Assembly: GCA_037441295.1 (NCBI GenBank)
Contig: JBBISK010000001.1
Location: forward strand, 1 to 49,900
Direction of reading: 5' to 3'
Origin: Candidatus Aminicenantes bacterium
Lineage (GTDB): Bacteria > Acidobacteriota > Aminicenantia > Aminicenantales > Saccharicenantaceae
DNA: 49,900 nucleotides
The notes beneath the pieces are model-generated. The model was not told the origin of the DNA. It saw only the letters and a list, made by a program, of their open reading frames with translations, and did not search any database. The translations under genes were made by a program, and so were the position numbers. Shown one piece after another: positions 3,002 through 46,680 of this stretch (positions are counted from its first letter, which is position 1; each line of letters begins with the position of its first letter).

Positions 3002-3516
3002 GCCCGACACGGACATCCAAGGACCTGTACTATCTGGGCATCGCCCGCGAGGTCGCGACGCGGAGCACCTGCTTCCGCCGAGCCATCGGGGCCATCATCG
3101 TCCGGGACGACCAGATCATTTCGACGGGGTATGTCGGGGCGCCCCGCAAGACCAAGGACAGCCTGGAACACGGCTTCTGCCTTCGCGACAAGCTCGGCAT
3201 CCCCCACGGCCAGCGCTACGAGCTCTGCCGGAGCGTCCACGCCGAGCAGAACGCCATCATCAACGCCGCCCGGGCCGGCGTCAGCCTCCTCGGCGGGGAC
3301 ATGTACATCTACGGCAGCGCGCCCGGGGCGGACAAGCCCATCGACGCCTTCCCCTGCTTCATCTGCAAGAAGATGATCATCAACTCCGGCCTCGACCGGA
3401 TCGTCTGCTCGACCGAGGACGGCGCGACGCGCGTCTTCCGCATCGACGAGTGGATCCGCGACTGGCAGGAGCGCGACATCGTCGACGACGAGCACCAGTA
3501 CGGAAAGAAGCCATGA
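2998..3516 (+). CDS. Deoxycytidylate (dCMP) deaminase, ComEB/CDA zinc-dependent family
   Basis: Carries the HAEQNAI (H-A-E zinc/catalytic motif) and PCFICKKMI (PCxxC zinc motif). Length is 172 aa. Confidence 0.9.
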   Translation: MSPTRTSKDLYYLGIAREVATRSTCFRRAIGAIIVRDDQIISTGYVGAPRKTKDSLEHGFCLRDKLGIPHGQRYELCRSVHAEQNAIINAARAGVSLLGGDMYIYGSAPGADKPIDAFPCFICKKMIINSGLDRIVCSTEDGATRVFRIDEWIRDWQERDIVDDEHQYGKKP

Positions 3517-5735
3517 CCGTCCGCAAGGCGGCGGGGGCTCGCCCCCTCGCCCCTCCGGCGTTCTTCCTCGTTCTACTGACGGCCTTGCTCTTTCTTTCCG
3601 CTGGCCGCTCTGAGCCTTGCTGCGGTCCCGGGCCGCGCCCAGCCGTCCCGGCGATGGGCCGGGAGGACGGGAGCGGGATCCTGAGTCTCCTCGGCCTGGA
3701 GCCGTCGGCGGAATCGGTCGACTACGTCAAGAACAAGACCCAGTTCCAGCTCCACACGCTGCTCACGGAGCAGCGTCACCCGAAGACCTGGGACCTCGGC
3801 GAGCGGGTCCGCAATGACACGCTCGAGGGGCTTCGGATGCTCTCATCCGTGGACGACGACATCCGGGCGAAGCTCGAGACGATGGCCGCCGACGCGGGCG
3901 TGCTCGAGACGCTCGACGCGGCGGCCGCCGCGGTCGAGACGGCGCTCCTGGCGAAAAGGAAGGTCTATATCTACGGCTGCGGCGCGACGGGGCGGCTGGC
4001 CAAGCAGATGGAGAGCGCCTTCTGGCGGCCGTTCTGGAGGAAGGTCCGGGCGGACGGCGAGGCCTGGCCGAAGCTCACGGGGCGTCTGTCCGCGGCCGTC
4101 GAGGACGAGCTCATCGGGGAGATGACGGGCGCCGACCGCGCCCTCATCAGCTCTCTCGAGGGCTTCGAGGACCTTCAGCTCATCGGCCGCCTCCAGCTCC
4201 GAGACCGGGGCGTCGGCAGGGGCGACGTCGTCATCTGTGTCACCGAGGGCGGCGAGACATCGTCGGTCATCGGCACGATCCTCGCGGCGCACGACCAGTG
4301 GACGGCCAAGCCGGGCTACGACCCGGCGGTCAGCCGGAAGAACCTCTATTTCGTCTATAACAACCCGGACGAACGACTGAGGCCGTTCGAGCGGAGCCGC
4401 AAGGTCCTGGAGGAGCCGGGCATCACCAAGATCAACCTGACGACCGGGCCGCAGGCGATCACCGGCTCGACGCGGATGCAGGCGACGACGATCGAGACGT
4501 ACGTTGTCGGCACCGTCCTCGAGGCGGCCGTCGGGCGGACGCTCGGCCGGTTCCTGGCGCCGCGGGAGATGCGGCGGCTGGGGTTCGAGCCGGTGTTCAA
4601 GACGGCGGCGCGGCTCCGCGAGTTCGGCGGCGTCCTCGAGGCGGCGCGCGAGTCGCTCCCGGCGCTCTCCCGGCTGACCGATATCGAGGCGGGGACCTAC
4701 GGCGGAGGCCATTTCTCGACATATTTCGCGGCCAGGGGCCTGATCACTGTCTTCATCGACAGCACCGAGCGGAGTCCGACCTTCCGGCTCTTCCCGCTCG
4801 ATACGGTCCGGGAGCCGGCGCGGAAATGCTGGATCGAGGTGTGGACCGGGGCGGCGACGCTCGGCGAGGCCTGGCGGGCGTTCCTGGGGCGGCCGTTCCG
4901 CGGCCTCGATGCGGCATTCTACCGGGTGCCGTTCGAAACGGGGATCGCAGACCCTTACCTGCGGCGGGCGGCCCTCGAGAGCCTGAAGAAGGCCGGGGAC
5001 GACCAGCAGGACCTCTACGACTTCTCGATGTCGGCAACGAACGCCGGTGGACGCGGCCCCGGACCGGGCGACCTGGGCGTCATGGTCGCCTTCTCGCCTG
5101 AGGACGCGGAGTTCGGGCGCGCGGATTCGGCCTTCCGGAAGTTCATGGACCTCTGCGCGGGCGAGCGCGCGCGCCTGGCCGTGCTGCTCGTCACGGACGG
5201 CCGGACGGAGGGGACGGAAGGGGCCGTGGGCCGGGTCCGGCGGGGTTGGCGCGGACTGACGGAGTCGCTCATCGTCGTCCCTATTCGCATGGGGACGGCG
5301 GGCGATCCCTTCGGGTTGAAGCCGCAGGTCGCGGCCAAGATGATCCTCAACGCCCACTCGACCGCGGTCATGGCCAAGCTCGGCAAGGTCATCGGGAACA
5401 CGATGACCAACGTCAGCCCGTCGAACCTCAAGCTTATCGGGCGCGCGACCTTCCTCATCCAGTCGCACGTGAACGACGTCCTTGGGCGGGCGGGCTGGAC
5501 CGAAGCGCATGGCCGGCGGGCTCCGATAGCGTATGCCGAGGCCAACGCCGTCCTCTTCGACGCCATCGGCTGGCTCAAGGACAGGCAGAACGAGGCGGGC
5601 CAGACGGCCGAGGTCGCCTTCTCGATCATCCGGATCCTCGAATCGCTGAAGGAGGGCCGGGGTGTCGCGAGGGAGGGGGCGCTCCGGATCGTGCGGACCG
5701 TCGGCCTCAGCGCCTATCTTTCCGCCATCAAGTAA
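3513..5735 (+). CDS. Large double-SIS protein related to MurNAc-6-P etherase (MurQ) and glucokinase regulatory protein, with hydrophobic N-terminus
   Basis: Start taken at the ATGA overlap (3513). MurQ-like blocks are present: VYIYGCGATGRLA, VVICVTEGGETSSVIG and ITGSTRMQATTIE. There is also a C-terminal KPQVAAKMILNAHSTAVMAKLGKVIGNTMTNVSPSNLKL block. At 740 aa the protein is about twice MurQ length. The N-terminus PPAFFLVLLTALLFLSAG looks like a signal or anchor. Confidence 0.7.
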   Translation: MTVRKAAGARPLAPPAFFLVLLTALLFLSAGRSEPCCGPGPRPAVPAMGREDGSGILSLLGLEPSAESVDYVKNKTQFQLHTLLTEQRHPKTWDLGERVRNDTLEGLRMLSSVDDDIRAKLETMAADAGVLETLDAAAAAVETALLAKRKVYIYGCGATGRLAKQMESAFWRPFWRKVRADGEAWPKLTGRLSAAVEDELIGEMTGADRALISSLEGFEDLQLIGRLQLRDRGVGRGDVVICVTEGGETSSVIGTILAAHDQWTAKPGYDPAVSRKNLYFVYNNPDERLRPFERSRKVLEEPGITKINLTTGPQAITGSTRMQATTIETYVVGTVLEAAVGRTLGRFLAPREMRRLGFEPVFKTAARLREFGGVLEAARESLPALSRLTDIEAGTYGGGHFSTYFAARGLITVFIDSTERSPTFRLFPLDTVREPARKCWIEVWTGAATLGEAWRAFLGRPFRGLDAAFYRVPFETGIADPYLRRAALESLKKAGDDQQDLYDFSMSATNAGGRGPGPGDLGVMVAFSPEDAEFGRADSAFRKFMDLCAGERARLAVLLVTDGRTEGTEGAVGRVRRGWRGLTESLIVVPIRMGTAGDPFGLKPQVAAKMILNAHSTAVMAKLGKVIGNTMTNVSPSNLKLIGRATFLIQSHVNDVLGRAGWTEAHGRRAPIAYAEANAVLFDAIGWLKDRQNEAGQTAEVAFSIIRILESLKEGRGVAREGALRIVRTVGLSAYLSAIK

Positions 5736-5738
5736 GAC

Positions 5739-5790
5739 GGGGTCAGGTCTACTTTCTATTAGTTTTCTGAAAGAAAGTAGACCTGACCCC
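5739..5790. repeat. REP-like perfect hairpin (copy A): 19-bp arms GGGGTCAGGTCTACTTTCT / AGAAAGTAGACCTGACCCC, 14-nt loop
   Basis: Read directly from the sequence. It sits 3 nt after the stop of the upstream gene and 85 nt before the RAYT gene. Confidence 0.9.
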
Positions 5791-5875: not shown

Positions 5876-6820
5876 ATGGCGAGGCCACTTCGGATCGAAT
5901 ATCCCGGTGCGTTCTACCATGTCCACGCGAGGGGAAATCAAAAGCAACCTATCTTCCTTTCGGACGAGGATCGTTTTTACTTTCTCAACTGCTTGCGTGC
6001 CGCTTATGAGAAGCTCGGGGCTGTCGTACACGCCTATTGCCTAATGGAGAACTATTACCATCTCCTGAACGAGACCCCTCATGGGAACCTCTCGAAGGTG
6101 ATGCATCTCATCAACACCACATACTCCATTTACTTCAACAAGAAGCATGCGCGTTGCGGCCACCCCTTCCAGGGACGTTTCAGCGCGATTCTCGTTCAGG
6201 CCGATATCTATGCGCGCGAACTGGCCGCCTACGTGCATCTTAATCCCGTGCGTGCCGGCATTGTCGGGTCGCCCGAAGAATACGCCTGGTCCAATTATCG
6301 GGAGTACCTTCGTCCCGAATCGTCGCAACCTTGGACCAGGACCTCCTTCGTCCTTCGCCTTTTCGCCTCAGATTCCCTGCGGGCCAGCCACCTTTATGCC
6401 GATTTTGTCCAAAGGCGCGCCGGGCAATCCCTTCCCGACCTTCTTAAGGCAGCCGAATCTGCTGGGATTCTCGGTGAGGCGGCCTTCCTCGCGCGCATTT
6501 ATAGCGCCTTCCCGGTTCGCCAATCTGATCCGATTCCCCGGGAAATCCCTCAACTTCGCAAACTCAAGTTCAGACCTCCGCTCCAGACCGTAGTGGCCGT
6601 TGCGGAACGCGTCCTCGGCCCGAAAAACGCCTTCGCCCGCAACGCCGCAATTTACGTTATCCACAAAAGAACAGATTACAGCCTCAGCGAGATTGCCGCT
6701 CATTTTAATATGAGCATTTCGGGCATCTCTGACGTCAGCCGAAAGATCCGCAGGGAACTGAACGGCAACGGCGTGCTCTCCAAAGCGATCGAAGAGATCG
6801 CCTTGTCAATCTTCCGTTAG
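5876..6820 (+). CDS. REP-associated tyrosine transposase (RAYT; IS200/IS605-like Y1 transposase) with C-terminal DnaA-C-like HTH
   Basis: The N-terminus YHVHARGN carries the HUH motif (H-V-H). YCLMENYYHLL and AAYVHLNPVRAGIV provide the catalytic-Tyr region. The C-terminal DYSLSEIAAHFNMSISGISDV resembles a DnaA domain IV type HTH. The gene is visibly lower in GC than its flanks. Confidence 0.85.
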   Translation: MARPLRIEYPGAFYHVHARGNQKQPIFLSDEDRFYFLNCLRAAYEKLGAVVHAYCLMENYYHLLNETPHGNLSKVMHLINTTYSIYFNKKHARCGHPFQGRFSAILVQADIYARELAAYVHLNPVRAGIVGSPEEYAWSNYREYLRPESSQPWTRTSFVLRLFASDSLRASHLYADFVQRRAGQSLPDLLKAAESAGILGEAAFLARIYSAFPVRQSDPIPREIPQLRKLKFRPPLQTVVAVAERVLGPKNAFARNAAIYVIHKRTDYSLSEIAAHFNMSISGISDVSRKIRRELNGNGVLSKAIEEIALSIFR

Positions 6821-6834
6821 CGGCCATACATGAA

Positions 6835-6887
6835 GGGGTCAGGTCTGCTCCTTTGCAGAAGAACTGATAGAAAGTAGACCTGACCCC
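6835..6887. repeat. REP-like element (copy B, degenerate left arm)
   Basis: The left arm GGGGTCAGGTCT (6835-6846) pairs with AGACCTGACCCC (6876-6887). The right arm AGAAAGTAGACCTGACCCC (6869-6887) is identical to copy A. Confidence 0.8.
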
Positions 6888-6894
6888 TTCCTAA

Positions 6895-8004
6895 TCAGGG
6901 CAAGGAGGGGTGGTCGAGAGTGTAGCAGGGCGCCGGGGCGGGCCGCGGCCGGCGCTTCGCCTTGGGCTTGGCCTGCGGGTAGACGTAGATCTCGCCGGCG
7001 TAGTTCCGCATCACAACCTGCTCGTCGTTGATGGACTGGACGTACTTCGGCAGAACCGGGATCTTGCCGCCCCCTCCAGGCGCGTCGATGCAGTAATACG
7101 GCACGGCCAGGCCGGACGTCCAACCCCGCAGCGCGTCCATGATCTCGATCCCCTTCTCGACCGTCGTCCGCAGGTGCTCCGTGCCGCTGACGTAATCGGC
7201 CTGGTAGATGTAGTACGGCCGGACGCGGACGGCGAGGAGCTTCTGCATCAGCCGCTTCATCGTCGCCGGGTCGTCGTTGACGCCCTTGAGCAGGACCGTC
7301 TGGTTGCCGAGCGGGATGCCGGCGTCGGCCAGCAGCCCGAGGGCCCGCGCCGCCTCGGGCGTAATCTCGTCGGGGTGGTTGAAGTGGACATTGACGTAGA
7401 GAGGGTGGTACTTGCGGAACATGGCCACGAGCTTCTCGGTGATCCGTTGCGGCAGGACACAGGGCACGCGCGTGCCGATCCGGATGATCTCGACGTGCGG
7501 GATGGCCCGCACGGCCTTCAAAATGTCCTCGAGCCGGCGGTCGCTCAACATGAGCGGGTCGCCGCCCGAGATGATGACGTCCCGGATCTCCGGGTGGTTC
7601 CGGATGTACTCGACCCCGGCCTCGATGTAGCGGGGGTGGATCTTCGACGGGTCGCCGACCTTCCGCTTCCGGGTGCAGAACCGGCAGTACGAGGCGCAGC
7701 TGTGCGAGACGAGGAACAGGGCCCGGTCGGGATAGCGGTGGACGATCCCCGGCACCGGGGAATCCTCGTCCTCGAGGAGCGGGTCCGCCTCGCCGGTGTG
7801 CTCCTTGAGCTCGGCCGGGTCGGGGACCATCTGGCGCCACATCGGGTCGCCCTTCTCCTTGATCAAACTGGCGTAGTGCGGAGTGATCTGGATCTTGAAG
7901 ACGCGGGCGATCCGCTTGACCTCCTCCAGATCGAGTCCGAAGGTGCGGGCGATCTCCTCAGGTTTCCTGAGACTGCCCTGAAGCAAACGTTGCCAGTCGT
8001 CCAT
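6895..8004 (-). CDS. kamA: Lysine 2,3-aminomutase (KamA family radical SAM/PLP enzyme)
   Basis: Start chosen at MDDWQRLL (ATG at 8004, preceded by GAGGAG). Motifs present are the CASYCRFCTRKR radical SAM cluster, SGGDPL, YYIYQADYVSGTEH and DAPGGGGK. The longer ORF to 8205 overlaps the GNAT gene. Confidence 0.9.
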   Translation of the reverse strand: MDDWQRLLQGSLRKPEEIARTFGLDLEEVKRIARVFKIQITPHYASLIKEKGDPMWRQMVPDPAELKEHTGEADPLLEDEDSPVPGIVHRYPDRALFLVSHSCASYCRFCTRKRKVGDPSKIHPRYIEAGVEYIRNHPEIRDVIISGGDPLMLSDRRLEDILKAVRAIPHVEIIRIGTRVPCVLPQRITEKLVAMFRKYHPLYVNVHFNHPDEITPEAARALGLLADAGIPLGNQTVLLKGVNDDPATMKRLMQKLLAVRVRPYYIYQADYVSGTEHLRTTVEKGIEIMDALRGWTSGLAVPYYCIDAPGGGGKIPVLPKYVQSINDEQVVMRNYAGEIYVYPQAKPKAKRRPRPAPAPCYTLDHPSLP

Positions 8005-8021
8005 CTCCTCAAGACTCCTTG

Positions 8022-8495
8022 TCAGCGAATGGATTTCGCATAGATGACGCGATCGTCGCCCGGCTTGTAATAGTCGGGAATCCGGGCGACTTCCTTGTAA
8101 CCCAGGTTGACGTAGAACTCCCGGGTCGCGTGGTACCGGGGCTGGGACGAGGTCTCGATGATGACCATCCGGCCGCGGCGCGTCCCGACCTCGGCTTCGA
8201 GCCACCGCACCAGCTCCTTACCGCGGCCCTTCCCCTGCTCCGACGGCGCGACGGCCATCCAGTAGAGGTCGTAGACGTCCTCGGCCATCGGCGTCGGCCC
8301 CCAGGTCAGGTAGCCCACGACGTCCTTCCGCTCGTTCTCGACGACGACGACCCGGTAGTCTGGCTGCTCCGGCACGCCGAGATAGATGTCGATGAGCTCC
8401 TCGGCCACGTCGACCTCGGCGGGAGTGAACATCCCCGTGGCCCGGACGAGGGCCAGCACGGGCTGCTTATCGGCCGGCTGCATTGGGCGGATCAT
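8022..8495 (-). CDS. GNAT family N-acetyltransferase (157 aa)
   Basis: Internal start MIRPMQPADK. The acetyl-CoA binding block is WMAVAPSEQGKGRGKELV (Q/RxxGxG/A). The upstream part of ORF 8022..8906 is an Arg-rich shadow of the ATP-grasp gene. Confidence 0.85.
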   Translation of the reverse strand: MIRPMQPADKQPVLALVRATGMFTPAEVDVAEELIDIYLGVPEQPDYRVVVVENERKDVVGYLTWGPTPMAEDVYDLYWMAVAPSEQGKGRGKELVRWLEAEVGTRRGRMVIIETSSQPRYHATREFYVNLGYKEVARIPDYYKPGDDRVIYAKSIR

Positions 8496-9501
8496 TGACG
8501 TCCTTCCTCCGGGCGGCGTTCCGGAGCATCGTCTTCCAGAACTCGGCGTACTCGACGCCGGCGGCCTTGAGGGCCCGGGCGTAGCCGGCGTTGAGGCTGA
8601 TGTCGGGGTTCGGGTTGACCTCGAGGATGAACAGGCGGCCCTTGGCGTCCATGCGGAAATCGACGCGGGCGTAGTCGCGGCAGCCCATCGTCCGGAAGGC
8701 GTCGACGGCCATGCCCTGAAGCCTGCCGCGCAGCTCGTCGTCGACCGGCGCCGGGCAGACCGGCGGAGTCTTTTGGTAGAGCGGATGGTCCTCGAACCAC
8801 TTCGCCTCGTAGCTGCAGATCTTCGGGGCGCCCTTGGGCATCTGGGAGAAGTCGATCTCCGAAACGGGCAGGGGCACGATCGCCTCGTTCTCCATGACGG
8901 AGACATTGAACTCCCGGCCGTCGATGTAGGGCTCGACGAGGGCCGGCTGCCGGTAGTTGTCGAGGACGCGCCGGACCTGCCGGCGGAAGGCCTCCTCGTC
9001 GTGGACCACGGAGTCGGGGTAGATGCCGAGGCTGGCGTCCTCGTTGTTGGGCTTGACGATGATCGGGAACTTGAGGTCGGCGGGCTGGTCGGCCGCGAGC
9101 ATGAGCTGAGCCTGGGCCGTGGGCAGGTTGCAGGATCTGAGGACGGCCTTGGCCTTGTGTTTGTCCTGGCAGATGGACAGGGTCTTCGAGTCGTTCCCGG
9201 TGAACGGCAGGCCGAGGAGCTCGAAGATGCCGGCGACGTTGGACTCCCACTGGGGCCGCCCGTAGTAGCCCTCGCAGAGGTTGACCAGGAGCTCGGGGGC
9301 TTCCTCCTTGACCCGGTTGAGGAAGTTGAAGAGGCTCCGCTGGAGCGGGATGAGGGTCGTCTTGAAGCCCAGGGACTTGACGGCCTCGCAGACCTGCTGG
9401 GCCATCTCGGCCACGGACTCCTCGGACAGGCGCTCGCCGGATGCCGTGGGCCGGGGCTCGAAGGCGTTGAAGACGATCCCGACGTGGGACGGAAGGGTCA
9501 T
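8467..9501 (-). CDS. D-alanine--D-alanine ligase family ATP-grasp enzyme (paralog 2)
   Basis: 344 aa. It has a Ddl-like N-domain and the ATP-grasp blocks IVKPNNEDASLGI, EPYIDGREFNVSV and ARVDFRMDAKGRLFILEVNPNP. Confidence 0.85.
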   Translation of the reverse strand: MTLPSHVGIVFNAFEPRPTASGERLSEESVAEMAQQVCEAVKSLGFKTTLIPLQRSLFNFLNRVKEEAPELLVNLCEGYYGRPQWESNVAGIFELLGLPFTGNDSKTLSICQDKHKAKAVLRSCNLPTAQAQLMLAADQPADLKFPIIVKPNNEDASLGIYPDSVVHDEEAFRRQVRRVLDNYRQPALVEPYIDGREFNVSVMENEAIVPLPVSEIDFSQMPKGAPKICSYEAKWFEDHPLYQKTPPVCPAPVDDELRGRLQGMAVDAFRTMGCRDYARVDFRMDAKGRLFILEVNPNPDISLNAGYARALKAAGVEYAEFWKTMLRNAARRKDVNDPPNAAGR

Positions 9502-10607
9502 GCTCGGGCTGCCTGGACCGCCGGCCTTTCGGCCGCCGCGGGCCGGACGCGGGTCGTCCGGAGGCCCCAGCGCTTAACCGCCTCGTCCACGACCCGGTGG
9601 ATCAGGTCCGAATACGAGTACCCCGCCGTCCGGGCCGCCTTGGGCAGGCAGGAATTGTCCTCGGGATTCGGCAGGATGCCGGGCAGGGGGTTGACTTCGA
9701 GGATGTTCGGCTCCCCCTTCTCGTCGAGCCGGACGTCGATCCGGCACCAGTCGCGGATCCGCAGCACGGCGCAGGTCCGCGTCACGACCGTCTCGACCTT
9801 CCGCTTCAGCTCCGGCGCGAGGTCGGCCGGGCAGCGGAAGATCTCGAGCGGCTTCGCCGGGGTGTCCCAGATCCACTTGGCTTCGTACGAGTAGATCGGC
9901 GCGGCGCCCGCGGGAAGCTGGGAGTGGTCGATCTCGACGATGGGCAGGATCTCGTGCTGGGGGTAGTTGCCGAGGACGCCGACGGTGAACTCCCGGCCGG
10001 CGAGGAAGCGCTCGACGATGGCCGGCTGCCGGTAGGCGGCGACGACCTCCTCGACGCGCTCGTAGAGCTCGGCGGGCGTGCGGACGAGGGAGTTGTCCTT
10101 GATCCCCTTGCTCGAGCCCTCAAAGAGCGGCTTGACGACCGCCGGCAGCTTGAGGTTGCTCGGCAGGACCCCGGGCGCCTCGACGATCCAGAAGGCCGCG
10201 TTCGGGATCTTGTAGTAGGACAGGATCTCCTTGGCCCGCGACTTGTCGAGCGCGATGCCGAGGGTCAGCGGGTCCGACCCCGTGTACGGGATCTCGAGCA
10301 TCTCGCAGACCGTCGGGATGTGGGACTCGCGGTTCGGCCCGTAGAGGCGCTCGGCGATGTTGAAGACGAGGTGCGGGCGGAGGCGCTTCAGCCGGGCGTA
10401 AGCCTTCTCATCGGCTTCGATGCGGAAGACTTGGTAGCGTTCCTGGAGGACCCGCTCGACGGCATCGATCGTCTCGTCCGAATCGCATTCCGCGAGCAGG
10501 TCGGGTGGCGATGGAGGCTCGTCCTCCTCCTCACGTCGTTCGTCGGGGCGACGAAAGAGCGTCGCTTCCATCCCCGATTTTGAGCTGCAAAGCAATGCTA
10601 CTTTCAT
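9498..10607 (-). CDS. D-alanine--D-alanine ligase family ATP-grasp enzyme (paralog 1) with acidic N-terminal linker
   Basis: 369 aa. ATP-grasp blocks are VVKPLFEGSSKGI, ERFLAGREFTVGVLG and CRIDVRLDEKGEPNILEVNPLPG. An ATGA overlap joins it to the next gene. Confidence 0.85.
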   Translation of the reverse strand: MKVALLCSSKSGMEATLFRRPDERREEEDEPPSPPDLLAECDSDETIDAVERVLQERYQVFRIEADEKAYARLKRLRPHLVFNIAERLYGPNRESHIPTVCEMLEIPYTGSDPLTLGIALDKSRAKEILSYYKIPNAAFWIVEAPGVLPSNLKLPAVVKPLFEGSSKGIKDNSLVRTPAELYERVEEVVAAYRQPAIVERFLAGREFTVGVLGNYPQHEILPIVEIDHSQLPAGAAPIYSYEAKWIWDTPAKPLEIFRCPADLAPELKRKVETVVTRTCAVLRIRDWCRIDVRLDEKGEPNILEVNPLPGILPNPEDNSCLPKAARTAGYSYSDLIHRVVDEAVKRWGLRTTRVRPAAAERPAVQAARA

Positions 10608-10712
10608 CGCTCATGTTCCTTCAACTGAAATTCTCGTAAGTTCCGAGTGCCGTAACCATGGAGTGGTCCTCAGTCTCGTTCCTTCTCGTTCTCCGTATCA
10701 AAATTCAATTTA

Positions 10713-10740
10713 TTTATAGACCTATTATATCAAATGTCAA
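10713..10740 (-). promoter_or_regulatory. Sigma70-like promoter for the ATP-grasp/GNAT/kamA operon
   Basis: On the minus strand: TTGACA (10740-10735), a 16-nt spacer, then TATAAA (10718-10713). It lies inside a conspicuous AT-rich island. The predicted leader to the ATG at 10607 is ~100 nt. Confidence 0.55.
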
Positions 10741-10858
10741 GAATTTTTTAAGGGAAGGCCACTTTTTTTGGTAGAGAACAAGATTCCCGACGCTATTTGT
10801 GGTGGCGAAAATGACGGCGCGCGGGCCTCACGTCGCCGCGTCGCGGACCGCGGCCGGC

Positions 10859-12109
10859 TCAGCGGAAGAGGACGAGCGTCGCGATGATGTAGAGCGGCCC
10901 CAGCACGGCCGCGGCGTAGCCCATGTAGCCGAAGAACGACGGCATCGCGTACCGATAATGCTCGGCGATGCGCTTGACCATGAAGTTCGGGCCGTTGCCG
11001 ATGTACGAGTTAGCGCCCATGAAAACCGCTCCGGCGCTGATGGCTCCGAGCACGGCCGCCGGAACCCCCGCGACACCGCCCCCGAGTCCGAGCCCGCGGG
11101 CCAGGGAGAAGAAGGTGAGGTAGGTCGGCGTGTTGTCGAGGAACGAGGACAGCCCGCCCGTGAGCCAAAAGAACTGCCAGGGCCTGGTCACGCCGAGCTC
11201 GGCGCCGCGTGCGCCGAGCAGGAGGAGGGCCGGGATCATGGTCACGAAAATCCCGGCGAAGAGGACAGCGACCTCGGCGATCGGGGCGTAGCCGAAGCGA
11301 TTCTCGTCCCGATAGCTCTTCCTCGTCGTGGCGAGCGAGAGAAGGGCCATGAGGACGAGGGCCGTCTCGCGGAAGGGGAACGGCAGGAACATCCCGCCGA
11401 CGACGCCCGCGACCCAGGCGAAGTTCAGCGTGCCCTTGAAATGGAGGGGAACGACGCGGGCCCGGTCGCGGATGAGGTCCTTCATCGTCTCCCGTTCGTA
11501 CGCGAGGCTGTCCAGGACGAAGAAGATGAGGAGAAGGCCGCCCAGGACGAGGGCCCACGCCGGAAAGAGCCGAAGCGTCCAAAAGAAGGGCACGCCCTTG
11601 AGGAAGCCCATGAAGAGCGGCGGATCGCCGAGGGGTGTCAGACAGCCGCCGATGTTGGAGACGGCGAAGATGAAAAAGACCGGGATGTGCCGCGTCCGCC
11701 GCCGCTCGCGGTTGGTCTGGAGGAGCGGCCGGATAAGGAGCATGCTCGCCCCGGTCGTGCCGATGACGTTGGCCAGGACCGCGCCGGCGAGGAGAAAGCC
11801 CGTGTTAACGAGCGGCGTCGCCCGGAGGTCGCCGCGGAGGACGATGCCGCCGGAGATGATGAACAGCGCCGCGAGGAGGATGATGAACGAGGCGTAGTCC
11901 TTGGCCGAGTGGAGGAGCTCGAGCGGCGCCCGCCACAGGAAATAGGCGGCGACCGGGGCCGACCACAGTGCGGCGACGAGGGCCTGGCCGCGCGGTCGTT
12001 CCCAGAACCGGGCGGCCCGGAGGGGCAGGAGCGCGATCGAGAGGAGCAGTCCGAGGAACGGCACGACCGACCAGAGCGGCAGGGTCCGGCCCAGGGTTTC
12101 CGCGCTCAT
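10859..12109 (-). CDS. ArsB/NhaD-superfamily ion transporter (putative Na+/H+ antiporter)
   Basis: 416 aa polytopic membrane protein. The N-terminus LPLWSVVPFLGLLLSIALLPL and overall pattern resemble NhaD/citrate-transporter-like permeases. Confidence 0.65.
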   Translation of the reverse strand: MSAETLGRTLPLWSVVPFLGLLLSIALLPLRAARFWERPRGQALVAALWSAPVAAYFLWRAPLELLHSAKDYASFIILLAALFIISGGIVLRGDLRATPLVNTGFLLAGAVLANVIGTTGASMLLIRPLLQTNRERRRTRHIPVFFIFAVSNIGGCLTPLGDPPLFMGFLKGVPFFWTLRLFPAWALVLGGLLLIFFVLDSLAYERETMKDLIRDRARVVPLHFKGTLNFAWVAGVVGGMFLPFPFRETALVLMALLSLATTRKSYRDENRFGYAPIAEVAVLFAGIFVTMIPALLLLGARGAELGVTRPWQFFWLTGGLSSFLDNTPTYLTFFSLARGLGLGGGVAGVPAAVLGAISAGAVFMGANSYIGNGPNFMVKRIAEHYRYAMPSFFGYMGYAAAVLGPLYIIATLVLFR

Positions 12110-12164: not shown

Positions 12165-13025
12165 TCACGGAAGGAAGGTCGGCGGAAGATAGGAGGCCCG
12201 GAGAGGAAGCCCGCGCTTCCGGGCCTTCTCTTCGAGCGGCCGCTCGATCGAGCGGCGGTCGCTCGGCGCGGTGAGGAAAACGACCCCGGCGCCGGCGGCG
12301 AAGAGCCGTTCGAGCGTTTCGAGCGGCAGCCCCCGCTCGACGTAGAGGACGAGCCGCGAGCCGGCGGCGCGGGCCGCGCGGAGGATGCCGAGGCCGATGT
12401 CGACGGCCCCGGCCGCGTCGAAGCCGCGGTCGGAGGCGTGAACCCAGGCCCCCTGGGCGGCCGCACCCGCGAGCTCCTCAGAAAGCGGCCCGTGGTGGTA
12501 ATAAGCCAGGAACGCGCGCCCCTTCCTGGCCGCCTCGGCCAGCCCCGCCACGGCGGCGGGGTCGCGGGGGATCGTCCGGTTGGAGACGTGGACGTCCATC
12601 CCGGCCGCCGCGAGCGCGAGGAGCGAGGGCAGGGAGAGCGTCGGGACCTTGGGCTCGGCCTCCAGGGGTCCGTTCTGGAAGAAGGCCAGCACGGTCCGCG
12701 CCCGGCGGCAGGCGACGAGGAGCCGGTCGAGCTCGGCTTCGACGGGCCGCGCCTCGTCGGAGGTGAAGAGCCTGACCCGCTCGCCGATGAGCGCTTCGAG
12801 CTCGGTCGCGCCGAAGCGGCCGGTGTCGAGGAGGCCCACGCGGACCCTCCGTGTCCGGGCCGCGCGGACCGCGTCGAAAAGGGCCTCGCGCCCGAACTGG
12901 TCATCGCGGATGAGCATGTCGCGGCCCATGCGGACCCGGTCGAGGAGCTCGTACGTCCGGACGACGTCCTCGATGCCTTTCTCGACGGGGTGCTTGTCCA
13001 TGTTTCGAATGCCAAGATATACCAT
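12165..13025 (-). CDS. Hypothetical protein built from four ~50-60 aa tandem repeats
   Basis: 286 aa. Four repeat modules are visible by eye: RRVRVGLLDTGRFGATELEALIGERVRLFTSD; ARTVLAFFQNGPLEAE...LLALAAAGMDVHVSNR; GRAFLAYYHHGPLSEELAGAAAQGAWVHASDR; GSRLVLYVERGLPLETLERLFAAGAGVVFLTAPSD. No family was recognised. Confidence 0.6.
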   Translation of the reverse strand: MVYLGIRNMDKHPVEKGIEDVVRTYELLDRVRMGRDMLIRDDQFGREALFDAVRAARTRRVRVGLLDTGRFGATELEALIGERVRLFTSDEARPVEAELDRLLVACRRARTVLAFFQNGPLEAEPKVPTLSLPSLLALAAAGMDVHVSNRTIPRDPAAVAGLAEAARKGRAFLAYYHHGPLSEELAGAAAQGAWVHASDRGFDAAGAVDIGLGILRAARAAGSRLVLYVERGLPLETLERLFAAGAGVVFLTAPSDRRSIERPLEEKARKRGLPLRASYLPPTFLP

Positions 13026-13100: not shown

Positions 13101-13802
13101 ATGGCCGGGAATTCCTGCGTCGTCCTGTTCTCGGGCGGCATCGACTCGACGACCGCCCTCTACTGGGCCCTCGCCCGCTACGGCCGGGTCCTGCCGCTAA
13201 CGTTCGACTACGGCCAGCGCCACCGGGTCGAGGTCCGGCTGGCCGGCCGCCTTCTCCGCAAGCTCGGCCTGCCGCGCGCGGTCCTTCGGCTCGACCTCGG
13301 CCAAGTCGGCGGCTCGGCGCTGACCGACCCCCGGATCCCCCTTCCCCGCGTCCGCAAGCGCGCGGAAATCCCGGCCGGCCCGCCGGCGACCTACGTCCCC
13401 TTCCGCAACGGCATCTTCCTGGCCGTGGCCGCGGCCTGGGCCGAGGCCCGGGGCGTCCGCGAACTTGTCTGCGGCTTCCACGTCCTCGACTCGCCCGAAT
13501 ACCCCGACACGCGCCGGGAGTTCGTCCGGGCCATGGAGAAGGCCGTCAACCTGGGCACGTCGGCGGCCTTCGGCGGCCCGAGGACGCGGATCCTCGCCCC
13601 GTTCGTCGGGCTGAGAAAGGCCGAGATCATCCGCCGGGGCCTCCGCCTCGGCGCCGATTACTCCTATTCCGTCTCCTGCTACGCCGGCGGCGAAGCCCCG
13701 TGCGGGACGTGCTCGTCCTGCCTCCTGCGCCGCGAGGCGTGGCGGGAGGCCGGCCGCGAGGACCCGCTCCTGGCGCGGCTGCGAAAGGAAGGCGCGCGAT
13801 GA
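13101..13802 (+). CDS. queC: 7-cyano-7-deazaguanine synthase
   Basis: Has the LFSGGIDS PP-loop and a C-terminal Cys cluster, CYAGGEAPCGTCSSCLLR. Confidence 0.93.
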   Translation: MAGNSCVVLFSGGIDSTTALYWALARYGRVLPLTFDYGQRHRVEVRLAGRLLRKLGLPRAVLRLDLGQVGGSALTDPRIPLPRVRKRAEIPAGPPATYVPFRNGIFLAVAAAWAEARGVRELVCGFHVLDSPEYPDTRREFVRAMEKAVNLGTSAAFGGPRTRILAPFVGLRKAEIIRRGLRLGADYSYSVSCYAGGEAPCGTCSSCLLRREAWREAGREDPLLARLRKEGAR

Positions 13803-14146
13803 GCTGGACACTCAAGGTCAGGGACGCGTTCTCCGCCGCCCACTTCCTCCGGGGCTACAAGGGGAAGTGCGAGAAGATCCATGGCCATACCTTCCAGGTC
13901 GAGGTTGAGGTCCGCGCCGCGGAGCTCGACGCGTCCGGCATCGGCTTCGACTTCACCGAAATCAAGAAGGCGCTGGCCGGGACCCTGCCCGACCACACGC
14001 TCCTCAACGAGGCCTATCCGTTCAACCCCTCGGCCGAGAACCTGGCCCGGCACCTATTCGGCGAGCTCCGGAAGCTCTACCCGGTGCGGGCCGTGACCGT
14101 CTGGGAGTCCGATGATGCGTCGGCAACATACACTGAGGACGACTGA
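13799..14146 (+). CDS. queD: 6-carboxy-5,6,7,8-tetrahydropterin synthase
   Basis: The internal ATG at 13799 forms an ATGA overlap with the queC stop. Motifs are FSAAHFL and CEKIHGHTFQVEV (Zn His triad region). Length is 115 aa. Confidence 0.9.
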   Translation: MSWTLKVRDAFSAAHFLRGYKGKCEKIHGHTFQVEVEVRAAELDASGIGFDFTEIKKALAGTLPDHTLLNEAYPFNPSAENLARHLFGELRKLYPVRAVTVWESDDASATYTEDD

Positions 14147-14744
14147 GGTCTTCGCCTCCGTCCAGGGCGAAGGGCTGCGCATGGGCGAGCCGGCGATCTT
14201 CATCCGGCTGGCCGGCTGCAACCTGCGATGCTCCTTCTGCGACACGAAGCGGGCCTGGGGGCGGGGCCGGGCCCGGACCGTGGCCGAGATCGTGGCCGAG
14301 GTCCGCTCCCTCCACCGGGATTTCCCGGCCCGCTGGGCCTGCCTGACCGGCGGCGAGCCGCTCCGCCAGGCCGTCGCTCCCCTCATCCGCGCCCTGCGCA
14401 GGGATGGTCTCGCCGTCCAGGTCGAAACGAACGGGACGTTCGCGCCGCGGCCCGACGCCGACTGGTACTCCGTTTCGCCGAAACCGCCCGATTACGCCGC
14501 CCATCCCCTCTTCCGGAGAAAAGCGAAGGAGGTCAAGCTCGTCGTCAGCCGCGGCCTGACCGTCGACGACGTCCGGGCCGTCCGCCGCGCCTTCCCCCCG
14601 GCGACCCCGGTCATCCTCCAGCCGCAGGGCAACGCCGGCTGGAGCCTGCGGAAGGCGGTCCGGCTCCTCGAAGAGGGCTCGCGCCAAGGGCTCGGCAACG
14701 TCCGCGTCGGGTTCCAGCTCCATAAGGTCTACAAGCTCAAATGA
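14112..14744 (+). CDS. queE: 7-carboxy-7-deazaguanine synthase (radical SAM)
   Basis: Motifs are EVFASVQGEG and the CNLRCSFCDT cluster. The exact start (14112 or 14115) is uncertain. Confidence 0.88.
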   Translation: MMRRQHTLRTTEVFASVQGEGLRMGEPAIFIRLAGCNLRCSFCDTKRAWGRGRARTVAEIVAEVRSLHRDFPARWACLTGGEPLRQAVAPLIRALRRDGLAVQVETNGTFAPRPDADWYSVSPKPPDYAAHPLFRRKAKEVKLVVSRGLTVDDVRAVRRAFPPATPVILQPQGNAGWSLRKAVRLLEEGSRQGLGNVRVGFQLHKVYKLK

Positions 14745-25017: not shown

Positions 25018-25117
25018 CCCCTCCTCACCTTGAAACAAAGAGGGACCTTCCCCCCCGAAGGGGACTGTCCCTCCTAATAATTTTGGTTGTTGGACGGGCC
25101 CTGTCTTTGTTAAAATG

Positions 25118-25262
25118 GCCCCGGGTTTAACCGAAGGGAAGTCCGTGCGATGCGGACACAGCCCCCGCTACTGTAACCGGGGACGAATCCCAGACGGAGC
25201 CACGGCGGCGGCGCCGGAAGGCCTGGGAAGAGGACGATCCGGGAGTCAGGAAACCTTCCTTA
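25118..25262 (+). promoter_or_regulatory. Cobalamin (B12) riboswitch aptamer upstream of btuB-like receptor
   Basis: Consensus blocks are present: GAAGGGAAGTCCGTGCGA, CAGCCCCCGCTACTGTAACCGGGGACGA, the B12-box-like GAGCCACGG, and CCGGAAGGC. A candidate promoter with TGtTAAAAT (25108-25116) precedes it. Confidence 0.85.
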
Positions 25263-25362
25263 AGCCCCGAGCGACCGGTCTTCGGGCGGAAGACAGGGGC
25301 TGTCCTTCATCCCCTCGATCCCCCAGGATAAAAGCAGCGGGGGCGGCTGTGGAGTTCCTGTC

Positions 25363-27324
25363 ATGGACAGAAGCACCTCCGTCCTCATCGTCGCGGCCAT
25401 CCTGGCCGCATCCGGCGCGGCGCCCGGACGGGCCGAAGACGGCCAGGCCAAGCCCGCCGCCTCGCTCCAGTACGACCTCGTCGTGACGGCGACGCGCGTC
25501 GAGACGCCCGGACGCGAGGTCGCGAGCTCCGTCACGGTCATCACGGCCGCGGAGCTCGCCCGGACGCGGCGGACGACTGTCCTCGACGCCCTGCGGGACG
25601 TCGTCGGGCTCTCGGTCATCCAGAACGGGGGCCCCGGGGCCACGGCCTCCGTCTCGATCCGCGGCGCGAACAACGAGCATACCCTCGTCCTTCTCGACGG
25701 CGTCGCCCTGAACGACCCCGTCAACCCCTCCCGGTCTTACGACCTCGCCCATATGTCCCTGGCCCAGGTCGAGCGCATCGAGATCCTGCGCGGGCCGCAG
25801 AGCCCCCTTTACGGGTCGGACGCGATGGGCGGGGTCATCAACATCATCACGCGGAAAGGCCGGGGCCGGCCCCGGCTCTCGCTCTCCGCCTCGGGCGGGA
25901 GCTACGGCACGGCCGGCGCCGACGCCGGCCTCTCCGGCTCGTCCGGCCGGGCCGATTATGCCTTCGGGCTGTCGGCCCTCAGCACGGCCGGGGTCTCCGC
26001 GGCCTCCTCCCGCTATCCCGGCAACAGCGAAAAGGACGGCTACCGCAACCTGACGCTCTCCGGGAGGGCAGGGTACGCCCTCCGGCCGAACCTCGACCTC
26101 GCCCTCACCGTCCGGGCCGTCTCCGCACGGACCGAGATCGACGCCTTCGGCGGCCCCTACGGCGACGACCCGAACGACCTCCAGTATTACCGGTCCGCTC
26201 TCGCCCGGGTCCTCCTCCGCGGCCTGTTCCTCGGCCAGCGCTGGGAGCAGAAGCTCTCGCTCGCCTGGGTCGGCTCGGACCGCAAGCTCGTGAACCCGGC
26301 GGACCCGGCGCATCCGCTCTCGAGCGAGTCGGGCGACTTCGCGAGCGGGCTCGTCCAGGCCGACTGGCAGAACAACCTCTTCCTCAGCCCGTCGCAGACG
26401 CTCACGGCCGGGCTCGAGCTCGGCCGCGAGCAAGCGCGGTCGGATTACGTCTCCACGGGCCCGGACGGGGCGTACGAGAGCTCGTTCCCCCGGGAGCGGG
26501 CCGAGGTCGCGGGCCTATACATCCAGGACCAGTGGAAGGCCGGGAACGCATTATTCCTCGCCGCGGGAGGCCGGCTCGACCTCCACAGCCGGACAGGGGC
26601 GGCCCTGACGTACCGCCTCGCCCCGGCCTTCGTCATCGAGCGGACGCGGACCAAGCTCAGGGCCACCCTCGGCACGGGCTTCAAGTCGCCCTCCCTCTAC
26701 CAGCTCTTCGCCCCGCCTACGGCCTGGGGCCCAATAGGCAACTCCCGCCTCCGTCCGGAGCGCGTGACCGGCTGGGACGCGGGCCTCGACCAGGACTTCC
26801 TGGCCGGGCGGGTTCGCCTCGGCCTGACGTACTTCGCCGATTCCTTCCGGGACCTCATCGACTTCGACTACCTCGCGGGCTACGTCAACATCGGCCGGGC
26901 CAGGACCCGCGGGCTCGAGCTATCGCTCGACGCGAGGCCGCTCGGGGCCGACCGCCCGCTGACCTTCCGGGCCGCCTACACCCGGCTCTCGGCCCGCGAC
27001 GAGATCTCGGGCGAGGCGCTCTTGCGCCGCCCCAAAGATAAGTTCACGGCCGAGTGCGGCACACGGCTCTTCCGGCGCTTCGACGTCACCGCCTCGCTCC
27101 TGGCCATGGGTCCGCGCCCCGACCGCGACTACAGCGCCCCTCCCTACCCGACCGTCGCCCTGCCCGGCTACCTCCTTCTCAACGCCGTCGTCTCGACGCC
27201 CGTCGGCCGTGACCTCGACCTCTTTGTCCGCCTCGACAACATCCTCAACACTCATTACGAGATGGTCTGGGGCTACGGGACGTACAGCTTCTCCCTCGTC
27301 GCCGGCGTCCGGCTCGGCCGCTAG
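25363..27324 (+). CDS. btuB: TonB-dependent receptor, vitamin B12 transporter BtuB-like
   Basis: Has a signal peptide and the plug domain VVTATRVETP...VTVITAAEL...LRDVVGLSV...SIRGA, followed by a beta-barrel. A B12 riboswitch lies upstream. Confidence 0.85.
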   Translation: MDRSTSVLIVAAILAASGAAPGRAEDGQAKPAASLQYDLVVTATRVETPGREVASSVTVITAAELARTRRTTVLDALRDVVGLSVIQNGGPGATASVSIRGANNEHTLVLLDGVALNDPVNPSRSYDLAHMSLAQVERIEILRGPQSPLYGSDAMGGVINIITRKGRGRPRLSLSASGGSYGTAGADAGLSGSSGRADYAFGLSALSTAGVSAASSRYPGNSEKDGYRNLTLSGRAGYALRPNLDLALTVRAVSARTEIDAFGGPYGDDPNDLQYYRSALARVLLRGLFLGQRWEQKLSLAWVGSDRKLVNPADPAHPLSSESGDFASGLVQADWQNNLFLSPSQTLTAGLELGREQARSDYVSTGPDGAYESSFPRERAEVAGLYIQDQWKAGNALFLAAGGRLDLHSRTGAALTYRLAPAFVIERTRTKLRATLGTGFKSPSLYQLFAPPTAWGPIGNSRLRPERVTGWDAGLDQDFLAGRVRLGLTYFADSFRDLIDFDYLAGYVNIGRARTRGLELSLDARPLGADRPLTFRAAYTRLSARDEISGEALLRRPKDKFTAECGTRLFRRFDVTASLLAMGPRPDRDYSAPPYPTVALPGYLLLNAVVSTPVGRDLDLFVRLDNILNTHYEMVWGYGTYSFSLVAGVRLGR

Positions 27325-46091: not shown

Positions 46092-46144
46092 GGGGTCAGG
46101 TCTACTTTCTTCCAAAAAAAGTGGAAGAAAGTAGACCTGACCCC
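46092..46144. repeat. REP-like perfect hairpin (copy C): 23-bp arms, 7-nt loop
   Basis: GGGGTCAGGTCTACTTTCTTCCA (46092-46114) pairs with TGGAAGAAAGTAGACCTGACCCC (46122-46144). It has the same 19-nt core as copy A at 5739. Confidence 0.9.
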
Positions 46145-46576: not shown

Positions 46577-46680
46577 GGGGTCAGATCTTTATTCTGCCAT
46601 TTTTCAGCGGACATCGCCATGCGGCCATCGTGACCAAGCTTGTGACTCATTAAAAAGTGGCAGAATGGAGATTTGACCCC
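46577..46680. repeat. MITE-like 104-bp element with 23-nt imperfect terminal inverted repeats related to the REP core
   Basis: GGGGTCAGATCTTTATTCTGCCA (46577-46599) pairs with TGGCAGAATGGAGATTTGACCCC (46658-46680), with 20/23 positions complementary. The arms match 18/23 positions of the copy C arm. Confidence 0.75.

Follow-up and report, generated by a model that had tools for sequence, protein, structure and literature searches.

The window analysed here is a stretch of 49,900 nucleotides from a Candidatus Aminicenantes bacterium (assembly GCA_037441295.1, contig JBBISK010000001.1, positions 1 to 49,900). On its minus strand lies an operon of four genes, referred to below as the cassette, which combines two ATP-grasp ligases of the D-alanine–D-alanine ligase (Ddl) clade with a small N-acetyltransferase and a member of the lysine 2,3-aminomutase family. 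As located from the open reading frame (ORF) listing and the sequence, the first gene, G1 (9498-10607), encodes a ligase of 369 amino acids (aa), the second, G2 (8467-9501), another ligase of 344 aa, and the third (8022-8495) the acetyltransferase of 157 aa, here called GNAT. The last gene, kamA (6895-8004), encodes a 369-aa protein that begins with MDDWQ and represents a short form of the radical S-adenosylmethionine/pyridoxal 5'-phosphate (PLP) lysine 2,3-aminomutase family. Pfam recognizes Dala_Dala_lig_C in both ligases (E ~1e-32; 1.5e-32 for G1), Acetyltransf_7/1 in GNAT (above the cut-off) and Radical_SAM together with LAM_C in KamA.

The genes are tightly packed. The ATG of G2 (9501-9499) overlaps the TGA of G1 (9500-9498) to form an ATGA, the genes of G2 and GNAT share 29 nt, and the gap of 17 nt between the GNAT gene and kamA contains the Shine-Dalgarno sequence AAGGAG/GAGGAG. 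Upstream of G1, a sigma-70-type promoter was read from the sequence of the minus strand at 10713-10740, with TTGACA at 10740-10735, a 16-nt spacer and TATAAA(T) at 10718-10712. In an upstream alignment of 10 related Aminicenantes loci, both hexamers (TTGACA and TATAAA) are invariant columns. A consensus promoter scanner chose TTAAAA-16-TATAAT (10751-10724) in the same AT island, and the −10 element of that choice is not kept in the relatives. Further upstream on the same strand, a conserved region (10758-10806) comprises an A-tract, CAAAAAAAGTGG, at about 10771-10760 and an inverted repeat of the GACAC..GTGTC type at about 10806-10793. Both fall within invariant or nearly invariant columns of the same alignment (55-70 and 89-101) and are a candidate UP element and a candidate regulator site, respectively. 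The operon is a set of translationally coupled genes behind one phylogenetically conserved promoter. A riboswitch or other leader RNA before G1 was also considered and rejected: no Rfam family matched at its gathering threshold, a miRNA match with E = 0.69 was spurious, and the length of the leader varies among the relatives.

Much of this layout had been proposed in a sequence-only reading of the same DNA, made from the letters and the ORFs before any database search. Its four packed minus-strand genes, with the ATGA at 9498-9501, the overlap at 8467-8495 and the 17-nt gap, were verified coordinate by coordinate, and its promoter is present with the conservation just described. The motifs that it had singled out (CASYCRFC, YQAD, CIDAPGGGGK and the acidic stretch RREEEDEPPSPP) are all in the sequence. 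Its remark that EpmA is missing also holds, as tblastn with a bona fide EpmA gave no match in the window.

Enzymes of the cassette

G1 and G2 are paralogues with 38% identity. In a search of the PDB, the profile of the ligase family matches Ddl structures over their full length (E = 4e-53), far ahead of any other ATP-grasp enzyme. Both proteins nevertheless fail every curated cut-off for Ddl and Van ligases: the best NCBIfam Ddl model, NF002378, gives 171 bits for G1 and 151 bits for G2 against a required 243, and the equivalog models are missed by larger margins. Residues were surveyed in 57 G1 and 59 G2 orthologues (116 in total; DdlB numbering). Lys97, Lys144, Glu180, Glu187, Lys215, Arg255, Asp257, Glu270 and Asn272 are kept throughout, the sole exception being one G2 with Asp at Glu270. 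By contrast with Ddl, Tyr216 is replaced by Trp in 116/116 orthologues and His63 always by Glu. The pocket of G2 is altered further (Ser150 to Ala, Gly276 to Asp, Ser281 to Ala, Leu282 to Gly), whereas G1 retains Ser150 and Ser281 and has Cys at 282. Since the catalytic residues are kept and positions 150, 276, 281 and 282 differ consistently between the two proteins, G1 and G2 are both read as active ligases, each with its own pocket. The alternative that one of them is a dead paralogue acting as a structural partner was ruled out, given that both keep all catalytic residues.

The sequence-only reading had left room for these proteins being bona fide cell-wall Ddl enzymes. The bit scores, Trp216 and the distinct pockets speak otherwise, and so does the occurrence of the ligase genes in archaea that lack murein (Thermoplasmatota, Methanocellales, Woesearchaeota). 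Among the loci read, mur genes never stand beside G1 or G2, and there is no cell-wall gene context. The acidic low-complexity linker that the same reading had described in G1 is a different matter: the stretch RREEEDEPPSPP exists, but it is a lineage-specific N-terminal insertion, found in Aminicenantes and one other representative, and not a conserved linker. In G1 orthologues of other phyla, the alignment does not begin until about residue 36. The nearest homologues of G1, with 71-98% identity, belong to Aminicenantes and Acidobacteriota.

KamA aligns with the Clostridium lysine 2,3-aminomutase (PDB 2A5H) at E = 7.9e-116 and has the CxxxCxxC cluster as well as the equivalents of the PLP-binding Lys337 and of Asp293 and Asp330. 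The two aspartates, which bind the ε-amine of lysine, had been identified as conserved acidic positions from the letters alone; aligned to 2A5H, they are invariant in 56/56 cassette KamAs, together with Lys337 and the cluster cysteines. Glutamate 2,3-aminomutase has Lys/Asn where the lysine-type enzyme has the two Asp. The glutamate model is failed by far (TIGR04368, 426 bits versus 650), and the cassette KamAs keep both Asp. The general family model is passed (TIGR00238, 303 bits versus 199), whereas the EpmB model is failed (TIGR03821, 242 bits versus 369), and the protein is also far under the arginine-aminomutase cut-off. The best-scoring NCBIfam model is that of AblA (TIGR03820), still below threshold with 476 bits versus 525. 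Cassette KamAs furthermore lack the zinc site and the C-terminal multimerization domain of the clostridial enzyme: the position of Cys268 holds Asp, Asn or Glu in 54/56 and Ser or Lys in the remaining pair, and in no case Cys. The clostridial CxCxxC motif is missing as well, and none of 57 C-terminal tails contains three or more Cys. Taken together, the cassette KamA is likely to be of the lysine type, with β-lysine as its likely product.

In GNAT, the acetyl-CoA-binding motif Q/R-x-x-G-x-G/A appears as QGKGRGK, and both Gly are kept at a frequency of at least 90%. The protein matches PDB 2R7H at E = 1.3e-30, a structural-genomics entry labelled "putative D-alanine N-acetyltransferase". Its best NCBIfam match, RimI, scores 36 bits where 86 are required. 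The AblB model is absent among the 13 NCBIfam matches of GNAT at E <= 1, in a library for which the presence of that model (TIGR03827) is unconfirmed. Judged from its sequence, the cassette GNAT is not AblB.

Gene order, fusions and accessory genes across genomes

A scan of species-representative genomes with a nine-sequence alignment found at least 590 matching stretches, and the gene content of the 80 best loci was read by tblastn with the four window proteins. The complete order G1-G2-GNAT-KamA on one strand occurs in 64/80 loci, and variants that still include KamA in another four. Contig ends cut four clear cases, or five with locus L030, which also counts among the loci without KamA. The 64 complete loci span more than 10 phyla and include Aminicenantes and other Acidobacteriota, Verrucomicrobiota, Kryptonia, Lentisphaerae, Bacteroidota, Ignavibacteriota, Desulfuromonadales/Geobacteraceae, Planctomycetota, KSB1, Calditrichaceae and Neomarinimicrobiota. 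The carriers from Ignavibacteriota include metagenome-assembled genomes (MAGs) classified as Ignavibacterium album and Melioribacter roseus. A search begun from the 2R7H sequence revealed a permuted order, KamA-G1-G2-GNAT, in Desulfovibrio mangrovi, a D. alaskensis-like organism, the gammaproteobacterium Woeseia and others. In Desulfovibrio, the permuted cassette is preceded by a sigma-54 activator. On the protein level, an exhaustive search of representative proteins returned 974 clusters (50% identity) of G1-like proteins at E <= 1e-30.

Between phyla, identity is about 55%, and the neighbours are housekeeping genes, recurrently recG, plsY, gpsA, dnaG, an M24 peptidase, que genes and an SIS-like protein. 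Clustering of 919 ORFs from loci L001-L084 brought up no additional conserved cassette gene in type-I loci, only such lineage-specific housekeeping neighbours. Because the same order recurs in 64/80 loci of many phyla, the grouping of the genes exceeds chance. The conservation of synteny that the sequence-only reading had put forward as a check is therefore borne out, with permuted and fused versions elsewhere, and the four genes very probably act as one functional unit.

Gene fusions join the same parts. More than 100 clusters (90% identity) of KamA~G1 fusion proteins of about 700 aa were found, mostly archaeal, with Thermoplasmatota, Methanocellales, Woesearchaeota and Nanoarchaeota as archaeal lineages. 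The fused ligase domain is of the G1 type (41-47% identity to G1 versus 32-35% to G2), and next to the fusion lie genes for a G2-type ligase and for a GNAT from another subfamily. Tandem ligase-ligase proteins, with two Ddl-like domains in one chain, are among the best matches, and in archaeal locus L092 G2 is fused to this other GNAT. As the fusions and the archaeal neighbours include all four parts, the four activities travel together in both prokaryotic domains. The GNATs of the archaeal cassettes are non-orthologous to that of the window; the acetylation step is thus conserved by function despite the replacement of the enzyme. In L091, a locus of Woesearchaeota, the GNAT position is held by a 440-aa protein (10369-11691) with no Pfam match and a PP-loop-like SFGKDS motif, and genes for MscL, Na+/H+ and Na+/Ca2+ transport and CorA lie just upstream.

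Two kinds of accessory genes, both of which hint at chemistry on a 1,4-diamine, accompany the ligases in some lineages. The first encodes a fusion protein of about 578 aa, in which a weak N-terminal GNAT-like region precedes an HDAC-type amidohydrolase domain. It is encoded within or next to the cassette in six loci (L040 9340-11067; L046 4933-6663; L085 8629-10386; L088 5268-7004; L089 5222-6959; L090 5250-6980) from at least four lineages, among them Calditrichaceae, Desulfuromonas, Desulfovibrio and Woeseia, and has no NCBIfam name. HDAC-type amidohydrolases deacetylate primary alkylamines. Their company points to an ε-type amine as the site of the acetyl group, which may be transient.

The second is a polyamine module in six loci of Desulfobacterota without KamA (L029, L030, L031, L054, L055, L071). 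In each of them G1 is immediately preceded by a pyruvoyl arginine decarboxylase gene, which is translationally coupled to it in L031. A gene resembling deoxyhypusine synthase (DHS) was detected in L029, L030, L031 and L055 and agmatinase in L030, L031 and L071; the sequences of L054 and L071 are truncated on the upstream side. In L031, the DHS-like protein passes TIGR00321 (dhys; 315 bits versus 304) and the agmatinase passes TIGR01230. Some of these loci continue after G2 with a GNAT, a methyltransferase and a second GNAT. A comparison of G1 and G2 linked to the polyamine module with those linked to KamA found no residue positions that separate them. β-Lysine (3,6-diaminohexanoate) is putrescine with a carboxymethyl group, which is why both feeder modules can be inferred to supply a 1,4-diaminobutane motif.

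Genes for translation factor modification were encountered near the cassette in one of about 90 loci. In L022, from Verrucomicrobiota, the region 61-1552, 1.3 kb upstream of the cassette, encodes elongation factor P (EF-P; gene efp) with a KPGKG loop, as well as a bona fide EpmA (TIGR00462, 329 bits versus 287), and a separate epmB was not seen there. The cassette KamA of this locus may double as the source of β-lysine for EF-P. A further tblastn match to EpmA, in L030, was rejected as an ordinary 497-aa lysyl-tRNA synthetase with an anticodon-binding domain.

A possible route to β-lysine conjugates and its rivals

By a modest preference, we read the operon as encoding an ATP-dependent and N-acetyl-dependent pathway that leads through two ligations from β-lysine to a small amide conjugate. 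KamA would convert L-lysine to β-lysine, and G1 and G2 would each make one amide bond via an acyl-phosphate intermediate. GNAT would acetylate a primary amine of an intermediate or of the product, most likely one of the ε type, where the acetyl group could serve as a cap or as a transient protecting group. The product would be a cytoplasmic, N-acetylated pseudo-di- or tripeptide containing β-lysine, or a β-lysyl-amine conjugate, with a likely role as compatible solute or polyamine-like polycation. It is likely that KamA makes β-lysine and that G1 uses it, since G1 is the fusion partner of KamA. What the sequences show is the gene structure with its conserved promoter, the spread of the module and its fusions through Bacteria and Archaea, intact catalytic residues in all four enzymes, and their standing outside Ddl, AblB and EpmB; the order of the steps, any further building blocks and the role in the cell are what we infer. 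A compatible solute would fit the precedents of AblAB and N-acetylglutaminylglutamine amide (NAGGN) and, in one archaeal locus, the neighbouring genes for MscL and ion transporters, and a polycation would fit the HDAC-type and polyamine modules; modification of a protein (EF-P or the archaeal initiation factor aIF5A) is a minority possibility. An ATP-dependent amide ligation involving β-lysine had been the central proposal of the sequence-only reading, and synteny, fusions, the non-Ddl character of the ligases and the KamA residues now support it, with the product still a prediction.

Several observations weigh against this proposal. No KamA stands near the ligase pair in seven of the 80 scan loci, five of which belong to the six Desulfobacterota loci above, nor in L001. 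Most neighbours are housekeeping genes, and nothing in them hints at salt stress. As the ligases of Desulfobacterota, which show no discriminating residues, sit behind polyamine genes and not behind KamA, β-lysine may not be the only or the direct substrate of the ligases. The product itself is a prediction from the genes. Finally, such a link may already have been predicted in the computational survey of amidoligases by Iyer et al. from 2009.

A broader scheme, which we regard as possible but doubtful, places the G1/G2 pair at the core of a pan-prokaryotic system of Bacteria and Archaea (including DPANN) that would build amide conjugates on a 1,4-diaminobutane scaffold. With KamA as feeder, this scaffold would be β-lysine; with the module of DHS-like protein, agmatinase and arginine decarboxylase as feeder, it would be agmatine, putrescine or homospermidine. 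The product would be a β-lysyl/aminoacyl polyamine or a modification of EF-P/aIF5A. In the first variant, the ligases would join an amine of the 1,4-diaminobutane type (putrescine, agmatine, homospermidine) to β-lysine and/or other amino acids. KamA would be the source of the acyl donor and polyamine genes, clustered or elsewhere, that of the acceptor, with GNAT and the HDAC-type enzyme handling acetyl-amines. Arginine decarboxylase in six loci, the DHS-like genes in four and agmatinase in three, with the two model matches in L031, are consistent with it, as are the lack of separating residues in the ligases, the HDAC-type fusion beside six cassettes and the chemical kinship of β-lysine and putrescine. 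Set against these, KamA and the polyamine module occur together in no locus seen, the module was found in one clade only, and the 49.9-kb window has no polyamine or HDAC gene near the operon. We consider such β-lysyl polyamines a speculative option, on the unlikely side.

The second variant, in which the cassette modifies the conserved lysine of EF-P (aIF5A), or extends its modification, replacing or building on β-lysylation by EpmA/EpmB or aminobutylation by DHS, is improbable. The efp and epmA genes of L022, and the match between the two feeders (KamA and DHS/agmatinase) and the two known chemistries of lysine modification in EF-P and IF5A, do point in this direction, and the cassette is found in small-genome DPANN archaea as well as among housekeeping genes. 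Bacterial DHS orthologues are, moreover, without an assigned link to EF-P (2026 review). However, the L022 arrangement is the only one of its kind, the apparent second case in L030 having dissolved into a lysyl-tRNA synthetase, and for Desulfuromonas a separate yjeK adjacent to efp has been reported (PMC2821294). The ligases are full-length enzymes of the Ddl clade, which act on small molecules, and the roles of GNAT and of the HDAC-type protein would be left unexplained.

Another rival takes KamA and GNAT simply as AblA and AblB, making the osmolyte N-ε-acetyl-β-lysine, and the ligases as unrelated cell-wall Ddl paralogues that happen to share the operon. KamA does score closest to the AblA model, with an acetyltransferase adjacent, and earlier comparative work placed such pairs under ablA/ablB (PMC2821294). 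This explanation is very unlikely in view of a GNAT of 157 aa with no AblB match at E <= 1, a KamA below the AblA cut-off, and ligases that are fused to KamA and to GNAT, fail all Ddl cut-offs, have Trp216 and occur in archaea without murein. That KamA instead starts a lysine fermentation, as KamA-family enzymes do in clostridia, with the other genes unrelated, is scarcely credible: no genes for lysine 5,6-aminomutase, 3,5-diaminohexanoate dehydrogenase or the cleavage enzymes (kamDE, kdd, kce, kal) were found within 10 kb on either side in L001, L002 and L004 or among the recurrent cassette neighbours, and the conserved feature is the partnership with the ligases and GNAT.

Significance, surroundings and known systems

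The preferred pathway from β-lysine to an amide conjugate concerns four activities that, in Bacteria and Archaea alike, have stayed together through changes of order and fusions of three kinds. Conservation of this degree between phyla, in housekeeping surroundings, implies that the metabolite or modification is an important one. Identification of the product would add a new fate of β-lysine, define the substrates of a large, misnamed annotation class ("D-alanine--D-alanine ligase family protein") and explain 2R7H; it could also explain the DHS-like genes in some bacteria. The pan-prokaryotic scheme, if true, would mean a new class of β-lysyl/aminoacyl polyamines or, more radically, a fourth route of lysine modification in EF-P/aIF5A, and this latter option would supply the function that the bacterial DHS homologues lack so far. 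There seem to be carriers in culture, namely Ignavibacterium album and Melioribacter roseus (by MAG assignment), Desulfovibrio mangrovi and the D. alaskensis-like organism.

Directly 3' of the kamA stop, a hairpin with a perfect 15-bp stem spans 6835-6887; the 76-nt stretch that contains it (6825-6900) folds at -35.3 kcal/mol with z = -5.1. The 12-mer arms of the hairpin are seen again at 5739-5790 and 46092-46144. It probably ends the transcript and is probably a repeat similar to repetitive extragenic palindromic (REP) elements, belonging to the neighbouring Y1 transposase. The gene of this IS200-like transposase (5876-6820, plus strand; Pfam Y1_Tnp) is flanked by two copies of a perfect palindrome, GGGGTCAGGTCT...AGACCTGACCCC, at 5739-5790 and 6835-6887. 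A third copy of the palindrome lies at 46092-46144, with a half-site bearing one mismatch at 46577. The whole looks like a unit of REP and REP-associated tyrosine transposase (RAYT), a "REPtron", inserted between kamA and a convergent SIS-like gene, and locus L002 of a 98%-identical relative has a Y1_Tnp gene at the same place. The SIS-like gene (3450-5735, plus strand) encodes a 761-aa protein with faint similarity to SIS/GKRP_SIS_N only. In 13 Aminicenantes loci (cluster 5) it is conserved as the neighbour that converges on the operon from downstream; beyond it, the relatives have cytidine/deoxycytidylate deaminase-family and AAA_18 kinase-like genes.

On the other side of the operon, a 286-aa protein with no Pfam match is encoded at 12165-13025 on the minus strand and recurs upstream in six Aminicenantes loci (cluster 10), followed in the window and its closest relatives by a CitMHS_2 transporter (10859-12109). 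Upstream of the operon region and divergent from it, a cluster of queuosine-precursor genes, queC-queD(PTPS)-queE, occupies 13101-14744 on the plus strand; queF, EamA, UbiA and DUF362 genes come further along in the relatives (L001, L002, L004), an arrangement conserved in Aminicenantes only. A cobalamin riboswitch (RF00174, 91.7 bits, E = 1.5e-21) is located at 25074-25276 on the plus strand, upstream of a 653-aa ORF (25363-27324).

The sequence-only reading had allowed that the cluster might already be described, and a search of the searchable full-text literature gave no description of the cassette. Bailly and de Crécy-Lagard (2010, PMC2821294) list pairs of "ablA with ablB" in Desulfuromonas, apart from yjeK-efp, and we suspect that these pairs include the cassette. 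A Pelobacter genome paper presents a plain ablA/ablB pair, and the paper on the sigma-54 regulome of D. vulgaris leaves the cassette genes unmentioned. In the 2026 review, three bacterial EF-P modification systems are described, none with an ATP-grasp enzyme, and the bacterial DHS orthologues stand without an experimental link to EF-P.

Among characterised systems, AblA/AblB of methanogens and some bacteria shares with the cassette a KamA-type lysine 2,3-aminomutase and an acetyl-CoA-dependent GNAT. Unlike it, the cassette has two integral Ddl-clade ligases, which are even fused to other parts, a short GNAT with no match to AblB, and a KamA that scores under the AblA cut-off and lacks the zinc cysteines and the C-terminal Cys motif. 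The pyrrolysine enzymes PylB/PylC(/PylD) follow a similar logic, as a radical lysine mutase forms an unusual diamino acid that a Ddl-like ATP-grasp enzyme joins to an amine. PylB, however, is not a PLP enzyme of the KamA family, the pyrrolysine system has no second ligase or GNAT, the cassette has no PylD, and PylC was not among the best 60 of 84 PDB matches of the ligase-family profile.

In Ngg/AsnO, which makes the osmolyte NAGGN, a GNAT and an ATP-grasp enzyme likewise cooperate and are fused in Ngg, a layout mirrored by the G2~GNAT fusion of L092. The ATP-grasp enzyme of Ngg is nevertheless of another clade, the cassette lacks an AsnO-type amidotransferase, and its supply would be β-lysine, not glutamine. 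EpmA/EpmB resembles the cassette in that a KamA-family enzyme provides β-lysine for an ATP-dependent ligation, with efp and epmA beside the cassette in L022, but EpmA is a paralogue of class II aminoacyl-tRNA synthetases, whereas the cassette ligases have the ATP-grasp fold and KamA stays under the EpmB cut-off. Neither efp nor EpmA occurs in the window or in the remaining loci.

With the Ddl and Van ligases, G1 and G2 have in common full-length homology and all residues for ATP, Mg and acyl-phosphate; they differ in falling below all cut-offs, in the exchanges of Tyr216 for Trp and of His63 for Glu, in the altered second-substrate site of G2 and in their archaeal occurrence. The acetylation and deacetylation of polyamines by SpeG-type GNATs and HDAC-type acetylpolyamine amidohydrolases, together with DHS-like homospermidine synthesis, draw on the same families that accompany the ligase pair in several lineages, although none of their accessory genes is in the window. 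To our knowledge, no polyamine pathway involves Ddl-clade ligases or KamA. Set beside all these systems, the operon is an uncharacterised, widespread variant of known β-lysine/ATP-grasp pathways.

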